The notes under the pieces: generated by a model
What the model saw: the letters and a program-made list of their open reading frames with translations, nothing else
What the model was told of the DNA's origin: nothing
Databases searched by the model: none
Shown here: in pieces, positions 9,620 to 32,213 of the stretch
Position numbering within the stretch: position 1 is the stretch's first letter
How the letters are laid out: each line of letters begins with the position of its first letter
Program-made: the position numbers and the translations under genes
DNA from: a virus
Lineage: Duplodnaviria; Caudoviricetes
Length of the DNA: 64,000 nucleotides
IMG/VR virus record: IMGVR_UViG_3300028805_000057
Location: 1 to 64,000 of that record
Reading direction: 5' to 3' (one strand)

Positions 9620-9949
9620 ATGACAAACGACGAAAAAATTGAAGAGATATTTAGAGAGACCGATGAGTTTTTTAAAAAGAAAGTAAGAGAAACATTTGGA
9701 CTTGGCGAGCAGGCTAAAATAGTAGATATTTGTGATGGATCTATTACGGATATTTATGATGTATTGAACGATTGTTACTTTGACGAAGATGACGAAAGAT
9801 GTAAAACATGCTCCGGTTTTAAACTTTGCCAGAAAATGGAAGAATTAGGTTATGATGAATGGAATGAACTTGAATATGAAGAACCTGACGGATATGCAGA
9901 TGAAATGGAAACTACAACAACAATATCAAATAATGGTATTTCCTGGTAA
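9620..9949 (+). CDS. acidic protein with C-terminal GISW tag
   Basis: ends NNGISW*; CxxC motif. Confidence 0.75.
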   Translation: MTNDEKIEEIFRETDEFFKKKVRETFGLGEQAKIVDICDGSITDIYDVLNDCYFDEDDERCKTCSGFKLCQKMEELGYDEWNELEYEEPDGYADEMETTTTISNNGISW

Positions 9950-12572: not shown

Positions 12573-13127
12573 ATGCCAAATTGGATTGAAGGAACATTAA
12601 AAATTCGTTCTAAAGATATTAATGATATTAAAAATTTTTTAAAAGAAGCTGTTGGTTATAGTTGCCATGCTTGTCCATTGTCAAGAGAAGAAAAAGCTAA
12701 ATGTTATGAAATAAATTATAAAGAACGACCTTGCGAAACTAATAACGAAATTAAACCGTTTAATAAAAATGTTAAATATGATGAGTCTTATGACGATGGA
12801 GATTATGTAATACTAAAAGATTTATTATTTGTTAAAGATGGTCCAAGTAGAGCATTTATTAATAAAGAAGACGAAACAAATGAAGAATATATAAATATTG
12901 AATCTCCTATATTAGTAATGCGTGTACAACAAGCTTGGGGATTTGATGCTGAAGGTTGGCTTGAATTAGCAAAGAAGTATCATATAGATATTCGTTTATA
13001 TGGTATTGAACAAGGTATGCAATTTGTACAAGAATTGGAAATAATTAATGGCGAAGTAACTATTGACAGAGAAATACATTATAAAGATTGGGATTGGGAA
13101 TGTCCTTTTCCAAGAATGGGAGGTTAA
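12573..13127 (+). CDS. phage protein with MPNW start (DUF1281/ferredoxin-like family suspected)
   Basis: MPNWIEGTLKI N-terminus; AW and E.GM.F motifs. Confidence 0.5.
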   Translation: MPNWIEGTLKIRSKDINDIKNFLKEAVGYSCHACPLSREEKAKCYEINYKERPCETNNEIKPFNKNVKYDESYDDGDYVILKDLLFVKDGPSRAFINKEDETNEEYINIESPILVMRVQQAWGFDAEGWLELAKKYHIDIRLYGIEQGMQFVQELEIINGEVTIDREIHYKDWDWECPFPRMGG

Positions 13128-13336
13128 TATGAGTAATGAAGAACATTATTTTGAAAATTTAATTCATCATGGAAGCGATGAAGTTGCGGGTAATTGTAAT
13201 AAAGATAATATTAAACCGGAAGTAAGACAAGCTATAGAAACATGTTATTATTATGTTTTATTTAATTTATTTAATTCAAGAGAAAATTTAGATGAGTTTT
13301 TAGAAGATCGCAAATGGTAAAGGAGGCTATTACAAA

Positions 13337-24946: not shown

Positions 24947-25999
24947 AGTTATTCATTTGGTTTTGCGATTGTTTTAAGGAGGATTAATTATGTTAAGTTT
25001 AGAGTATATAAAAGAACACAATAAAGATATTGAGCAGGATAAATTCCTTGATGCAAGATGGACTAAGAGAATTCTTGACTTTTTACCTTATGAGGAATGG
25101 GAAAAGTATGGTTTTAAGGCAAGTGAAGACTTTGATCCTTCTACATATAAACCTAAAGAGTGGACAGAAGAAAATCTCATGGCTCAGCTTGATGAAGATG
25201 TGGAATTTGCAATTGAAAAAGCAAGAAATCATAGAGGTATTTCTGCTAGTTTAATGAATGATGTACTTAGGTCTTGGTGTATTGTTCTTGAGAATGGATT
25301 AGAGAATACTGAATATGGTTGGTATGGTGACAAGTTAATTAAAGCATTAAATGAAAAGTATAATCTTGGTTATAACACGGATGAGATATTTGATGAAGAA
25401 TTCTATGAGGAATGGTAATAAATATGATCGAAAGATGTAAAGAATGTCCGCATTGTCAAACAAATAATGTTTATCCTTTATCTAATAGAGAATATTGTAA
25501 TAAATGGCATTTTGAAGTGGAACCAGAACGCAATGCTTGTAAATATGCCGAACAATTTTTAAAAACAGAAGACAAACCAAAATTAAAAAAGAAACTATTT
25601 GATTGTACTATACAAGAAATTTCTGAAATGTGTGCAAAACATAATAATCATTGTAAAGATGAAGAAGGTAATTTCTGTCCTTTGATGTCAACAAATGATC
25701 CATTTAATGAATGTATGTTAATGTGGTTGGCTAAGAATCCGTCACATTGGATAAATTTTGCAGATAAGGAGATATAATATGTTAGGAATTGATAAAACAA
25801 CATTAATAGAAGCAATTAAAAATGCAGATGCAAAGATATTTACAGAAAAAAATTTAGAAGATTTGATTTGTAATTTAGGAAGAGCATGTGTATATGATCA
25901 TGGTAAAGTTGTATGGTATAATAAAGAAGAAGACGAAGACAATAACTATGACTTTGATAAGGATCATATACCTAAAGATCCTAGACATTAAAAGATATT

Positions 26000-26432: not shown

Positions 26433-26613
26433 AAAAATATTTAGAAACAAATATGAGGAGTTGATAGAAATATTGGCTTCTCTTGTTTCTTTTTTAAAAA
26501 ATAACTAAAAAGAGAAGATATAAATTTAATGAAGATTGTTTGTAATGAAAATATTTTTAATAAAGGCCATAATACTAGAATTAATTCATAAATATTAAAA
26601 AGGAGACGAACAA

Positions 26614-26889
26614 ATGACAAATGGAGAAGTATTTATACAAGTTATGAATAACACATTTGGCATACAGGTTGCTCCTGAATTCTTTCAGAATCGGGCATAC
26701 TGTAATATGTTCAAATGTGATATGAAATGTCATACTTGTGAGTACGACAAGTTTTGGTTAGCCGAATACAAGAAACCAACACTAGAAGATATGAATCGAG
26801 AATTGATTGATAACTTAGTTGGCGATTTGGATCGAATTCTTCAAAAAGAAGAAGAGAAGAAAAATTCTGTTGACGGCATCTCATGGTAA
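26614..26889 (+). CDS. hypothetical protein with C-terminal GISW tag
   Basis: ends VDGISW*. Confidence 0.75.
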   Translation: MTNGEVFIQVMNNTFGIQVAPEFFQNRAYCNMFKCDMKCHTCEYDKFWLAEYKKPTLEDMNRELIDNLVGDLDRILQKEEEKKNSVDGISW

Positions 26890-26905
26890 GGTAGGTGATA
26901 TTTTT

Positions 26906-27142
26906 ATGACGATTGATTATGTATATTTTAAAGATATCGATAAAAAGATTATACTGCCATTTAGTTTAGAAGTTCCGGATAATTTAAAAGGAATCGAACT
27001 ACAAGCATATTGCTTCAGTAAGATTATAGAGAAGTATAATGAGATGCTTGGTTTTACTGAAGAAGAGGCTCAGTATCGTGATGCTTATATTCAGGGTTGT
27101 AAAGAAACTGTAGCGTTAACAATGGATGAAATAAGTTGGTGA
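26906..27142 (+). CDS. hypothetical protein with C-terminal EISW tag (start moved to 26906)
   Basis: ends MDEISW*; LPFSLEVPD resembles FPFSIDIPD of the next gene. Confidence 0.7.
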   Translation: MTIDYVYFKDIDKKIILPFSLEVPDNLKGIELQAYCFSKIIEKYNEMLGFTEEEAQYRDAYIQGCKETVALTMDEISW

Positions 27143-27153
27143 GGTGATCTGAT

Positions 27154-27612
27154 ATGAAATTCGATAATATTAATGCTACAGGATTAGGATATGGCAGAAT
27201 ATATTTTCCATTCTCAATAGATATACCGGATGAAGAATGTCAGAGATGTTCTGAAGCTGATAGAAATTATATAATTTTAGTTGAAGCAGTGTTGAAGTTT
27301 AAAGAAATTTGTGAAAAACAAAAAGAATCTATTGAAAAGAAGAAGAAAATAATAAATAATTTCTATGGTTCTAAACATGTTTATGACGAAGCAATTGATA
27401 CATTTAGAAATTATGTAACATCAGATAGTGCTCGTGATCGAACATACAAGGATTATGTAGCAACATGGGAAAATTATGATTACACAAAATGTTGCAATAG
27501 AATTGATGTAAAGAAAATAAATAAAAATGATACTGAAAGTACTGAAAATAATCTTAAAACAGAAGAATCAAATGAAGTAACGGCATTTACATCAGGAGAA
27601 ATCTCTTGGTGA
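27154..27612 (+). CDS. hypothetical protein with C-terminal EISW tag
   Basis: ends SGEISW*. Confidence 0.75.
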   Translation: MKFDNINATGLGYGRIYFPFSIDIPDEECQRCSEADRNYIILVEAVLKFKEICEKQKESIEKKKKIINNFYGSKHVYDEAIDTFRNYVTSDSARDRTYKDYVATWENYDYTKCCNRIDVKKINKNDTESTENNLKTEESNEVTAFTSGEISW

Positions 27613-27649
27613 TGCAAATAAAAAAAATAATTTTAAAGGAGACAAAAAA

Positions 27650-28348
27650 ATGGACAACATGATTAACAACACAACAAGTTTTATGAACGGAATGTTCGGT
27701 AAGTTAGGTAGCGGAATGTGCAGGATTACTGCAAACGGAAACATCGCTGTAAAGGCAGGTAAGGATTACAAGTATTATAATGTCAAGACAGGTAGACTTA
27801 CTAACTGTGCAAACTTTGTATTGCCGGTAAGCGATGACTTCTTCTTTGTTGTTCCTACAAGTAAGGTAAATGTAGGTGATGTAATTCTTGTAGATGATCA
27901 TGGTATCAGAAAGCCAAGATGTGTAAAGGAAGTAAAGGGCGATAGCATCACAGTTATTAACTACGAGACCAGCACCATTGAAACAATCCTTCCCGAAAGG
28001 CATATCTTCATGGGTAACGTATACTTCTACGGTAAGATCGTAAGCATCTTCGGCCAGAATCTGAATGGAAAGAAGAGTGGTAACAACATCTTCAAGTATA
28101 TGATGATGAGTGAAATGTTCAAGGGAATGTCGGGCAATAATACTAATGCTGGAAATGGCTTTGGTAATATGCTGCCTATGATGATGCTTATGAATGGTGG
28201 AAATGGTTTCGGTGATCTCTTTGACTTTGATCTCTTTGGAGAGGGTGCTCTTCCTACAGATATTCTTGAGGATGCAGAGGAAGAAGAAGAGGAAGAGGAG
28301 ACAATTGATGAGCCTGCTCCTGCTCCGGCAAAGAAGAGCAAGAAATAA
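27650..28348 (+). CDS. phage protein with Met/Gly/Asn-rich and acidic low-complexity tail
   Basis: AAGGAG RBS; C-ending codon bias suggests high expression; terminator at ~28364-28395. Confidence 0.8.
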   Translation: MDNMINNTTSFMNGMFGKLGSGMCRITANGNIAVKAGKDYKYYNVKTGRLTNCANFVLPVSDDFFFVVPTSKVNVGDVILVDDHGIRKPRCVKEVKGDSITVINYETSTIETILPERHIFMGNVYFYGKIVSIFGQNLNGKKSGNNIFKYMMMSEMFKGMSGNNTNAGNGFGNMLPMMMLMNGGNGFGDLFDFDLFGEGALPTDILEDAEEEEEEEETIDEPAPAPAKKSKK

Positions 28349-28468
28349 TTAAGATCATTCTATGAGGGTAGCTAAAGATATTTTGGTTACCCTCAAATTT
28401 TAAAAAAAGCATATTGAACAAAGTGAGATATGAAGTTTACTACTGAAAGGAGTAAAGTTTAGATTAAT

Positions 28469-28645
28469 ATGGGCGCATAAGCATTTAACCAGGAAGAACT
28501 TCAGGAATACGTAGAAAAGAAAGATGCTAAAGCAATAACTATTGACAATATTAAAACTGCAATTAAGGAACTTAGATCTTATGGATATGAAAACGATGAA
28601 ATTGTAGATCTTGTTAGGACACTTACAAAGGAGGCGAATGTTTAA
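28469..28645 (+). pseudogene. 58-codon frame with in-frame TAA at codon 4, coupled to the vWA gene
   Basis: ATG GGC GCA TAA GCA TTT ... GTT TAA; final stop overlaps the vWA ATG. Confidence 0.4.
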
Positions 28646-29508
28646 TGGGCGGAGGAAGTTGGACAAAAAGAGATTTTGTAAACTATACTTGTGCAACTAA
28701 GAGCACTGCAACTATTGATCATTTAACTGGTTCTTATACAGTCTCAAGTCACCAAGATATTTACAAGTCAAGAACAATGGCGGCAGAGCTTAATCCTAGA
28801 AATGTTACCAGGGAATGCTGTGATTCTGAAGAGCATCCTAATACAATTCCTGTAATCTTAGCTCTTGATGTAACTGGTTCTATGGGGCAGACAGCTCAGG
28901 AAGTGGCTCAGAAGCTTAATGTCATCATCACAGATCTTTACAGCAAAGTTAAAGATGTTGAGTTTATGATTATGGGTATTGGTGACTTTGCATACGATGA
29001 TTGTCCTCTTCAGGTAAGTCAGTTCGAGTCGGACATCAGAATTGCAGAACAGCTTGACAAGATATTCTTTGAAGGTGGCGGCGGTGGAAATAGCTATGAA
29101 TCATATACTGCCGCTTGGTATTTTGCATTAAAGCATACAAAGCTTGACTGCTGGAATAGAGGAAAGAGAGGAATCCTGATTACTTTAGGAGATGAGAATC
29201 TTAATCCTTATATTCCTTATAAGTCTTTAGCAAAAGCAACTGGTGACACACTTCAGGGAGATGTAGAAACAAAAGATATTTATCCTGAGGTTATAAAGAA
29301 GTATGATGTACATCACATTTATGTAGATCATCATGGATATGACTATGCGGACTTTAATACTTGGACAGAGTATCTTGACGGTCAGCATTTCCACAAAGCA
29401 AAAGTAAATGACATTGCAGCATTGATTACAGACATCGTTACATCTGCAGATACTAATGCAGGATTTGAAACAAGCGATACAACAAATGATGGAGGAATTA
29501 CATGGTAA
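28645..29508 (+). CDS. von Willebrand factor A domain protein ending GITW
   Basis: MIDAS motif LALDVTGSM; GGGG..ESY; LITLGDE. Confidence 0.85.
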   Translation: MGGGSWTKRDFVNYTCATKSTATIDHLTGSYTVSSHQDIYKSRTMAAELNPRNVTRECCDSEEHPNTIPVILALDVTGSMGQTAQEVAQKLNVIITDLYSKVKDVEFMIMGIGDFAYDDCPLQVSQFESDIRIAEQLDKIFFEGGGGGNSYESYTAAWYFALKHTKLDCWNRGKRGILITLGDENLNPYIPYKSLAKATGDTLQGDVETKDIYPEVIKKYDVHHIYVDHHGYDYADFNTWTEYLDGQHFHKAKVNDIAALITDIVTSADTNAGFETSDTTNDGGITW

Positions 29509-30692
29509 AAGATGTGAGTATTATTATCGGAGCAAATTACGGTGACGAAGGTAAGGGCCGTATGTCCGATTATCTCGCCAACAAAGCTATACAAGCAGGA
29601 CAGTCCACAATCACAATTTTGTCTAATGGCGGAGCACAAAGAGGTCACACAGTAGTGCTCGATAATGGTTTTACACATATCTTTCATCATTTTGGTTCAG
29701 GTACACTGACTGGGGCGGATACATATCTTCCCCAGTCATTTATCGTGAATCCGATGATATTTATGAAGGAGTATAATGAACTATTGAATAGTCCACTTGG
29801 CAGAGATACAAGTTTATGGCCAAAGATATTTGTGGATCCAGCATGTTTAATCTCTACTCCTTTTGATATGATGAACAATCAAATTATCGAAGAACACAGA
29901 ACACATAGACATGGTTCTTGTGGTGTTGGTATCTGGGAGACCATTTTAAGACAAGGTGCAAGTTTTCATGATTTTTACATGATGACTAATGAGCAGTTGT
30001 TTACCTATCTTAAATGGGTTCGCGATACTTACTCTGCAAAAAGACTGTCTGATAAGAACATAAAGTCATTTGGTGCATGGAAAGATATTTACTTCAATGA
30101 TAATATGATACATAACTATATTAAAGACTTTAGACAAATGTCAGCACTTATAAATGTGGATATGACCGGTGGAAGTTTCTTAAAGTCATATGACCACTTA
30201 ATATTCGAAAATGGTCAAGGTCTATTAATTGATTATGATTCAGATCCCGTTTATAGTACGCCAAGCTATACTGGATTAAAAGAACCATTAAAGATAATTA
30301 ATAGGCTGAAAGAGAATGATTATAATGTTAATGTTGAAGCATACTACATATCAAGAAGTTATTGCACAAGACATGGCATGGGTAATCTCCGGTTTGAATA
30401 TGATCCTAAAGATATTCGAGGTTTACAATTGAATTTGAATTCGGAAACAAATAAATTTAATACAAATCAGGGCATATTTAGGTATGGTAAAATTGATAAC
30501 TTTGATGATGTTAGAGCTTCTATTGAACAAGATTTATATAAGAATAATTATGTTGTAGACAATAAGAATGCAAATGTTGTTATAACGCATTGTGATGAAC
30601 TTGATGTACCATTTAATAAGATATTTGGACTTGGTAAGACATATAAAGTATATGGTCCAAAGAGAAATGATCCTGTAAATATAGTAAATTAA
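29502..30692 (+). CDS. purA: divergent adenylosuccinate synthetase family protein
   Basis: GANYGDEGKG, GGAQRGHT, HGSCGVGI, FENGQGLLID, TRHGMG. Confidence 0.8.
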   Translation: MVKDVSIIIGANYGDEGKGRMSDYLANKAIQAGQSTITILSNGGAQRGHTVVLDNGFTHIFHHFGSGTLTGADTYLPQSFIVNPMIFMKEYNELLNSPLGRDTSLWPKIFVDPACLISTPFDMMNNQIIEEHRTHRHGSCGVGIWETILRQGASFHDFYMMTNEQLFTYLKWVRDTYSAKRLSDKNIKSFGAWKDIYFNDNMIHNYIKDFRQMSALINVDMTGGSFLKSYDHLIFENGQGLLIDYDSDPVYSTPSYTGLKEPLKIINRLKENDYNVNVEAYYISRSYCTRHGMGNLRFEYDPKDIRGLQLNLNSETNKFNTNQGIFRYGKIDNFDDVRASIEQDLYKNNYVVDNKNANVVITHCDELDVPFNKIFGLGKTYKVYGPKRNDPVNIVN

Positions 30693-31613: not shown

Positions 31614-32213
31614 ATGGCAGAATTAAAAGATTCAGGTGCTAGAAGAGAGTTTGCTTCTGGTGCAGTCAGAGATATTGCAGAAGGAAAAGGCAGATGTGAT
31701 TTGCTGCCCTTAGATATTGTTGCAGAATTATTGAATATGTATCACATAGATAATGAAAATTCTGATGAACTTCATGATATTGCAGGTGATGCACATGAAA
31801 TATTAAAAAGCATAAATGAATTCGTTCGAAAAGGTAATACTCGAGATATTTATAATGCTATAGGTTATTTTATAGAGATTAGTGGATTCAAAACTATTCC
31901 TATAGCAATGATGGAAGTCTCTAAGCATTACGAAGATGGAGCAAGAAAATATGCAGAGCGTAACTGGGAGAAAGGAATTCCTTGTCATTGTTATGTTGAT
32001 TCAGGCGTAAGACATTTTCTCAAATGGATTGACAAATGGGATGATGAACCACATAATAGAGCATTTCTTTGGAATATGTTAGGATTACTTTGGACTGTAA
32101 AACATAAACCTGAATGTAATGATCTTCCTTATGTATTATTACAAAAAGAAGCTAGTGAGGCCGAAGACAAAGAATGGGGTACTGTTGAAGAAAGATTAGG
32201 CTCATTAAAGTGA
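31614..32213 (+). CDS. dATP/dGTP diphosphohydrolase (DUF5664-like)
   Basis: GAVRD..GKGRCDLLP, GARKY..RNWEKG, DS..RH, H...WN. Confidence 0.8.
   Translation: MAELKDSGARREFASGAVRDIAEGKGRCDLLPLDIVAELLNMYHIDNENSDELHDIAGDAHEILKSINEFVRKGNTRDIYNAIGYFIEISGFKTIPIAMMEVSKHYEDGARKYAERNWEKGIPCHCYVDSGVRHFLKWIDKWDDEPHNRAFLWNMLGLLWTVKHKPECNDLPYVLLQKEASEAEDKEWGTVEERLGSLK

Follow-up and report, generated by a model that had tools for sequence, protein, structure and literature searches.

Five proteins encoded in a 64,000-nucleotide stretch of phage DNA (the window) end in the same short C-terminal tail, I-[S/T]-W. The window covers the opening 64 kb of IMG/VR record IMGVR_UViG_3300028805_000057, a genome of 147,894 bp (31.6% G+C; 100% complete by CheckV) with nearly all of its genes on the + strand. 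The tagged genes are 9620..9949, 26614..26889, 26906..27142, 27154..27612, and 28645..29508, the last coding for a predicted von Willebrand factor A (vWA) protein that is flanked by 27650..28348, whose product we refer to as the hub, and by 29502..30692, which codes for a PurA-like enzyme. The tail is a real and selected element at the protein level, and the best overall explanation, to which we give slightly better than an even chance, is that it would dock its carriers as a peptide tethered at their C-terminus, the hub being the favored receptor.

All five open reading frames (ORFs) are real and end in NGISW, DGISW, DEISW, GEISW, and GGITW, respectively, as the initial annotation described, and exactly these five sense-strand ORFs (of at least 40 aa in the whole 147,894-bp genome) have an I-[S/T]-W end. 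Residue frequencies predict only ∼0.03 such ends per ∼242 genes. In 2,000 shufflings of residues within each protein, 1,933 gave no I-[S/T]-W end, 64 gave one, 3 gave two, and none gave three or more, such that the five observed are well separated from the shuffled expectation against which the initial annotation had proposed to weigh them. The codons for Ile and for Ser/Thr differ between the tagged genes, as had also been noted, and the last 39 nucleotides are identical at only 15 to 22 of 39 positions in pairwise comparisons; the likeness is thus at the protein level, and an origin of the tail as a DNA repeat or cassette is ruled out. Among the ORFs of the first 69 related loci, a terminal I-x-W is present on 81 of 2,210 sense ORFs versus 1 of 2,229 antisense ORFs, and there is no enrichment of terminal L-x-W, V-x-W, or I-x-F in the same set.

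The tail is kept in every carrier family with testable orthologues, and the conservation on which the earlier proposal depended is borne out in the vWA family (65 of 69 related viral loci, ending x-[IV]-x-W) and in the 27154 and 9620 families. All 22 homologues of the 27154 protein (53 to 84% identical) retain NE[TV]TAFTS[GR]EISW in spite of an indel-rich linker, and all seven homologues of the 9620 protein (54 to 85% identical) retain TT.[IV]S..GI[SF]W. Orthologues of 26614 and 26906 are found only in the near-identical contig L139, where the 26614 protein is identical, so tail conservation in these two is judged there only. The vWA family is far larger, with at least 7,739 database clusters at 90% identity, and in the best 120 of these the last residue is W in 120 of 120 and the residue at −3 is I in 118. 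Position −2 is S in 83, A in 12, T in 10, and V in 8, and is never P; position −4 is occupied by E (49), G (45), or M (14), and G is at −5 in 72. The alignment passes from a conserved domain (residues 1 to ∼270) to the tail through a linker that varies greatly in both length and sequence. Following variable and disordered linkers, and carried by unrelated folds, the tail has the anatomy of a docking peptide. Three of the small tagged proteins share a longer motif, E-T-[TV]-A-Phi-[ST]-x-x-[EG]-I-S-W, whose polar/hydrophobic alternation is a pattern expected of a beta-strand or a small hairpin.

The near-universal tail carrier is the vWA protein, which is encoded in a compact and recurrent module. 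In 69 vWA loci, the hub gene is directly upstream in 67 and a PurA-like gene is downstream in 67, and in 79 of 80 hub loci the hub gene is followed by a vWA gene ending in I-x-W. The vWA and PurA-like pair extends further, to 25 of 28 distant viral loci and to the cultured phages Va1 of Vibrio (L070), RHph_TM61 of Rhizobium (L138), and Bxz1 of Mycobacterium (L137), whose hosts are from three other phyla; judging from these loci, the pair is much older than the tail. We note that in Bxz1 a kinase-like gene (gp247) immediately precedes the vWA gene (gp248), and that gp250 is annotated as PurZ.

In distant clades, the vWA C-terminus is again a short motif following a linker, is clade specific, and changes together with the upstream gene. 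The hub class designated hub-A accompanies vWA tails of the [IV]-x-W type in 147 locus rows; in the genome set, the tails found with hub-A are IxW in 42, TA[SRK]W in 10, otherwise W-ended in 4, and ISW plus three residues in 1. A 115-aa coiled-coil upstream protein pairs with tails that have a terminal L or M, most of them of the form E-Phi-x-L, in 14 locus rows (with two contigs counted twice); examples are EEVML, EVEMM, PEIIL, EEMML, TEEIL, and EIEIL, among others. This coiled-coil protein has a conserved end of its own, KKRY.YLFGG. A Met-rich protein, hub-C, which is a distant hub relative (hhalign probability of 89% for the Va1 protein), pairs with tails of the form ..[RK][HY]AL[FG].. in seven of eight cases. 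The vWA tails of other clades (L109 to L136) also include L-[IV]-E-F and a basic ..RPRW. Among 131 nonredundant vWA rows with upstream sequence, hub-A and a terminal W are both present in 94 and both absent in 33, four have the W without hub-A, and none has hub-A without the W.

The association is consistent with the hub as receptor, which is not to say that it proves it, and several observations weigh against so direct a reading. The vWA tree contains only three changes of tail state and seven of hub state, and a test of independent pairs for hub presence against the W tail is not significant, there being too few changes; the association is thus perfect but shallow, and is confounded by descent. 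Mutual information with tail positions −4 and −2 has the same distribution for columns of the hub, of the vWA core, and of the PurA-like enzyme, a result that is uninformative because phylogeny dominates it. Four vWA proteins without a hub are still W-ended (e.g., RSRPRW), and in hub-C phages (e.g., Vibrio phage Va1) a hub homologue is present but the W tail is not. The structural matches of the hub are weak (Z of ∼7) and typical of chance-level matches among small barrels. Finally, the vWA protein is the sole tagged protein in most relatives, so a self-directed role for the tail is equally compatible with the distribution.

The hub itself (27650..28348, + strand; 232 aa) has a beta-rich N-terminal half, Met-rich helices, an FD..FDF stretch, and an acidic end. 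In the AlphaFold2 (AF2) model, residues ∼24 to 132 are beta-rich and include an SH3/Tudor/KOW-like barrel, followed by the Met-rich helices (KYMMMS.., MLPMMM); residues 66 to 134 match SH3, Tudor, and KOW barrels at a generic level only, with Z scores of up to 7.1. SH3- and Tudor-like barrels and Met-rich segments are features of peptide-binding modules. The family has 1,406 representatives at 50% clustering, and the acidic end is present in 83 of 150 representatives; there are no matches to the hub in Pfam, PHROGs, NCBIfam, or PADLOC, and only unnamed viral clusters in the ESM Atlas. One relative, P0257 (495 aa), has an N-terminal NUDIX domain (PF00293; E value of 1e-12), and this NUDIX::hub fusion would fit a platform for nucleotide-handling enzymes. 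Two other relatives, P0204 (859 aa) and P0212 (576 aa), have three to five N-terminal Cys-rich repeats of ∼90 residues, ending in ..HWEYVD or ..WKYVD. A terminator-like hairpin (28364-28394) is directly 3′ of the hub gene.

The sole exception among the 80 hub loci is a gene fusion. In the complete 204,834-bp genome G006, the hub is fused in frame to the PurA-like enzyme (L201:5007-6617; 536 aa, with PF00709 at residues 172 to 454), and there is no vWA gene anywhere in the 204,834 bp. The hub barrel and the Met-rich part are retained, and at the junction the hub sequence ..MLPFMM.GGNMG meets G..YGDEGKG of the enzyme. If the vWA protein is an adaptor tying the enzyme to the hub, then a direct hub::PurA-like fusion would make it dispensable, and the fusion without a vWA gene, albeit a single case, is consistent with the vWA protein as a bridge between hub and enzyme. 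Given this natural fusion, the co-occurrence with W tails, and the barrel and Met-rich segments, the nomination of 27650..28348 as a receptor candidate in the initial annotation was a reasonable one.

We propose that the terminal [x]-I-[S/T/V/A]-W-COOH, carried on a flexible linker, would plug its carrier into a pocket of a single, common receptor. The alternation of Ile and Trp side chains, together with the free carboxylate, suggests that docking would occur as an added beta-strand, as for Phi-x-Phi-COOH ligands. The ancestral and near-universal carrier would be the vWA protein of the hub, vWA, and PurA-like module, acting as an adaptor that joins the PurA-like enzyme to the hub (27650-28348), and the four small, early proteins of the present lineage would have gained the same tail, being either co-recruited to the same site or competing for it. 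We infer the binding itself, the partner, and the beta-strand mode from these patterns, and the parts of the proposal differ in strength. It is probable that the tail is a docking peptide for some shared receptor; that the receptor is encoded within the module is a possibility falling just short of even, and the assignment of the hub specifically is more tentative still.

Short C-terminal docking peptides organize replisomes, proteasomes, and protein shells, and several known systems offer points of comparison. The tip of the bacterial single-stranded DNA-binding protein (SSB; ..D-D-D-I-P-F-COOH) and the acidic, Phe-ended tails of T7 gp2.5 and gp4 dock on partner proteins. They share with the present tail a disordered linker, a very short invariant C-terminal peptide, Ile at −3, and a terminal aromatic residue, and in T7 several proteins carry the same kind of tail for one common receptor, as they would here for the candidate receptor. 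However, the present carriers are neither SSBs nor replisome proteins, and the last residue is Trp rather than Phe. Class II PDZ ligands and the porin ends that activate DegS have the form Phi-x-Phi-COOH (e.g., Y-x-F); they are alike in this pattern and in needing a free C-terminus, and the binding mode would similarly be beta-strand addition, whereas the present carriers are cytoplasmic proteins without signal peptides and the candidate receptor has an SH3/Tudor-like barrel. By analogy, the SSB tip and the T7 gp2.5 and gp4 tails appear closest in logic and the Phi-x-Phi-COOH PDZ ligands closest in chemistry. The tail falls outside the first of these, its carriers not being SSBs and its sequence lacking both Pro at −2 and the acidic run, and membership in the second is doubtful, no PDZ_2 domain having been found in the phage. 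There is no PF00436 (SSB) match in the whole phage genome, nor among the five carriers, which have no Pfam family apart from a weak TrfA match, and the one PDZ model searched against the phage genome, PF13180 (PDZ_2), gave no match there. Inclusion of the tail in the SSB-Ct class was accordingly rejected, as there is no OB-fold SSB carrier, −2 is never P, and the acidic run is not conserved. T4 gp43, gp33, gp55, and RNase H have clamp-binding C-terminal tails, and encapsulins use cargo-loading peptides; in these, too, one short C-terminal address is placed on unrelated proteins and read by one hub, but there is no sequence likeness and no clamp or shell is implicated, the setting here being an enzyme cassette.

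These parallels raise the alternative that the receptor is a host protein, with the tail mimicking a host C-terminal docking signal such as an SSB tip, a clamp-binding tail, or a PDZ ligand, and so recruiting the carriers to a host machine or blocking it. We regard this as unlikely, although it has several attractions. An acidic or polar run, Ile at −3, and a terminal aromatic residue recall the layout of SSB and T7 gp2.5-type tips, and tail class differs between phage clades with different hosts, with IxW in contigs binned mostly with Lachnospiraceae and Clostridia and the ALF type in Vibrio phages. The four small carriers also resemble early host-takeover proteins in being small, Cys-rich, and without homologues of known function, and no PDZ_2, OB-fold SSB, or ClpP was found in the phage genome. 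However, the Pro at −2 and the acidic run of the SSB tip are not retained, with E, G, or M occupying −4 and S, A, T, or V occupying −2, the universal carrier is an enzyme-linked module protein rather than a typical takeover protein, and tail class tracks a phage-encoded upstream gene.

A second alternative arises from the vWA protein itself (28645..29508, + strand; 287 aa), which is integrin I-like and ends in ...DGGITW, with the tail at residues 273 to 287 (29461-29505). The AF2 model (predicted local distance difference test [pLDDT] score of 80; predicted template modeling [pTM] score of 0.80) gives 353 PDB matches with Foldseek at an E value of ≤1e-3, led by integrin I and vWA domains, and the metal-site residues of D-x-T-x-S...T...D (D75, T77, S79, T180, and D183) are invariant or nearly so in the vWA alignment. 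As there is no Pfam vWA match at an E value of ≤0.01, membership rests on fold and motif, and on the predicted structure the product is a vWA domain; searching PDB sequences with the vWA profile returned no meaningful match. The last 15 residues are disordered (pLDDT of <50) and are unpacked against the protein's own domain. A carboxylate on a flexible peptide is the classical ligand of vWA domains, and the beta-I metal ion-dependent adhesion site (MIDAS) of integrins has as its intrinsic ligand a Glu that follows the last alpha-I helix. The tail could thus be the vWA protein's own ligand, placing its carboxylate or the Glu at −4 on the MIDAS metal, either in cis for autoinhibition or in trans for head-to-tail oligomers, in which case the small tagged proteins would compete with it, opening or capping the vWA protein. 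Conservation of the MIDAS residues is in keeping with such a role, which would also account for the vWA protein being the one universal carrier and for the shift of tail class from one vWA clade to another. We nevertheless consider it improbable: AF2 leaves the tail off its own domain (noting that AF2 ignores metals), Glu is at −4 in only 49 of 120, and both the link between the W tail and hub-A and the hub::PurA-like fusion lacking a vWA protein are left unexplained.

An adaptor role for the vWA protein has precedents. CbbO, NorD, ViaA, BchD, and TFIIH p44 are vWA adaptors that couple an enzyme or ATPase to its target, and the present protein resembles them as a MIDAS-bearing vWA encoded beside, and presumably working with, an enzyme, with an adaptor role through peptide contacts. 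It differs in that the partner is a PurA-like enzyme and in that the C-terminal Trp tail has no counterpart in CbbO, NorD, ViaA, BchD, or p44; no partner ATPase of the MoxR type was seen in the loci read, among which no family-level search was made. The vWA N-terminus is also conserved (28645-28662), as MG.G[ST]W/Y in the alignment, with M1 invariant and G2 and G4 nearly so. A 58-aa gene (28469-28645) sits between the hub and vWA genes and is intact in L139 (2020-2196), and its stop codon shares bases with the vWA start (TAATG). In the window, its codon 4 (28478-28480) reads TAA where L139 has CAA, a difference that may reflect a nonsense mutation, an error in sequencing, or a pseudogene.

It is very improbable that the tail marks its carriers for degradation, as a C-terminal tag that a host protease or adaptor would recognize to give them a timed, short life. 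Recognition of ssrA-type tags does rely on nonpolar C-terminal residues of disordered tails, and the carriers do sit in an early or middle gene block, but known bacterial C-terminal degrons end in small aliphatic residues of the LAA type, which the I-x-W tail does not resemble, rather than in an invariant Trp with Ile at −3. Conservation over 11 to 13 residues and co-variation with a phage gene are also unexpected for a host protease tag, and no phage ClpP was found. The weakest alternative, that the tail has no function and reflects chance, a relic of common descent, or overlap with the next start codon, can draw on the probable distant paralogy of 26906 and 27154 and on the overlap of the vWA Trp codon with the PurA-like start in the present genome (ATGGTAA), but we give it almost no credence, as three or more I-[S/T]-W ends never arose by shuffling, the tail is invariant where linkers are scrambled, the carriers are unrelated outside the tail, and the W is kept even though most relatives lack the stop/start overlap, which also disposes of the tail as an artifact of that overlap.

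Returning to the docking peptide with the hub as favored receptor, the number of clients per genome is modest. In a tail census of four genomes of relatives, three read whole and one nearly whole, the docking-type tail is on the vWA protein alone in three (G003, G004, and G005), and in the fourth (G001) it is on the vWA protein and on a small protein encoded after the PurA-like gene. Most relatives thus tag only one or two proteins, and the five-client set is a lineage-specific local expansion. The earlier suggestion that tagged clients dock on one hub therefore survives in part: the tail is selected and 27650-28348 is a reasonable candidate, but a general many-client system is not seen. Small proteins encoded directly after the PurA-like gene form a fourth small family in relatives, with helical members of 87 to 110 aa that are 27 to 54% identical and end in CITW, EITW, EIIW, EIRW, or EICW. 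Two further proteins have related C-termini, a 78-aa protein of G003 (162047-162283) ending ..EYKITW and a protein of G000 (145502-145825) with a similar C-terminus, ..YYSISWEKANE, in which the motif is internal; in these the sequence is probably a structural strand and not a docking tail.

A further, speculative step, which we think unlikely as it stands, is that the hub is a phage assembly platform, with barrels that read I-x-W-COOH, a Met/Gly/Asn-rich segment that self-associates, and a transferable address that picks the members. If so, the members would be the vWA-bound PurA-like enzyme across the clade, together with small regulators in some lineages, and the address and receptor would be paired by clade as IxW with hub-A, E-Phi-x-L with the coiled-coil protein, and ALF with hub-C. 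This would constitute a modular and evolvable targeting code in a very large family of phage nucleotide-metabolism modules. More generally, I-x-W-COOH as a new and sharply defined docking peptide would mark out an unstudied protein complex, and the tail offers an experimental handle on a widespread hub, vWA, and PurA-like cassette, with the vWA and hub families being mostly in gut and rumen phages of Clostridia. Adding 4 to 13 residues would be enough for a phage lineage to bring new small proteins into a complex that already exists. In the literature searched, including a 2026 NAR paper on PurZ (PMC12884076), neither the I-x-W tail nor a vWA protein as partner to a PurA-like enzyme was found described.

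The enzyme of the module (29502..30692, + strand; 396 aa) is a divergent member of the PurA superfamily, the start of which overlaps the vWA Trp and stop codons (ATGGTAA). It matches PF00709 with an E value of 3e-24 but only over profile positions 1 to 278 of 416, with the C-terminal third unmatched, and it retains the P-loop GDEGKG and the GHT motif. The best NCBIfam PurA equivalog scores 62.6 bits against a cutoff of 402, and PurZ (NF038379) scores 27.2 bits against a cutoff of 300, over residues 5 to 98 only. PDB matches to PurA are only at an E value of ∼1e-7 and there is no PurZ entry at ≤1e-3, and PHROG 1211, a broad family named for PurZ, matches at 5e-44. With scores far below both curated cutoffs, identification as either PurA or PurZ was rejected, and given these scores and the N-terminal-only Pfam match, we do not call the enzyme PurZ despite a MazG-like domain nearby. 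The earlier PurA-like label thus holds at the level of the PF00709 superfamily but does not extend to PurA or PurZ themselves. The MazG-like domain (PF18909, a dATP/dGTP diphosphohydrolase) is at 31614-32213, 1 kb downstream of the PurA-like gene.

The four small tagged proteins have no match in Pfam, PHROGs, NCBIfam, or PADLOC, and the 27154 protein has none in the ESM Atlas; scans of viral contigs gave no relatives of 27154, 26614, or 9620, and a metagenome scan gave only the near-identical L139. The product of 9620..9949 (+ strand; 109 aa), the sole tagged gene distant from the module, is acidic and contains Cys, and it ends in ...ETTTTISNNGISW, with the tail at 9908-9946. The 26614..26889 gene (+ strand) is the first after a terminator-like hairpin (26455-26482) and codes for a Cys-rich protein of 91 aa ending in ...VDGISW (tail at 26872-26886). 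Next, 26906..27142 (+ strand), which has an ATG start and an AGGTGA ribosome-binding site, codes for a 78-aa protein ending in KETVALTMDEISW (27101-27139), and 27154..27612 (+ strand) codes for a 152-aa protein in which a variable, indel-rich linker joins the conserved N-terminal domain to the 13-residue tail NEVTAFTSGEISW (27571-27609). The 26906 and 27154 proteins have an N-terminal I-x-x-PFS-x-x-x-PD stretch in common and are probably distant paralogues; the other tagged carriers are unrelated outside the tail.

The relatives of this phage are uncultured, with genomes of 100 to 210 kb, and are from gut and rumen samples. Binning of metagenome-assembled genomes places contigs with the same module mostly with Lachnospiraceae and with other Clostridia. 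We note lastly that two other sense-strand proteins of the window, 24990-25418 (..FYEEW) and 13063-13320 (..EDRKW), have a terminal Trp without Ile at −3.

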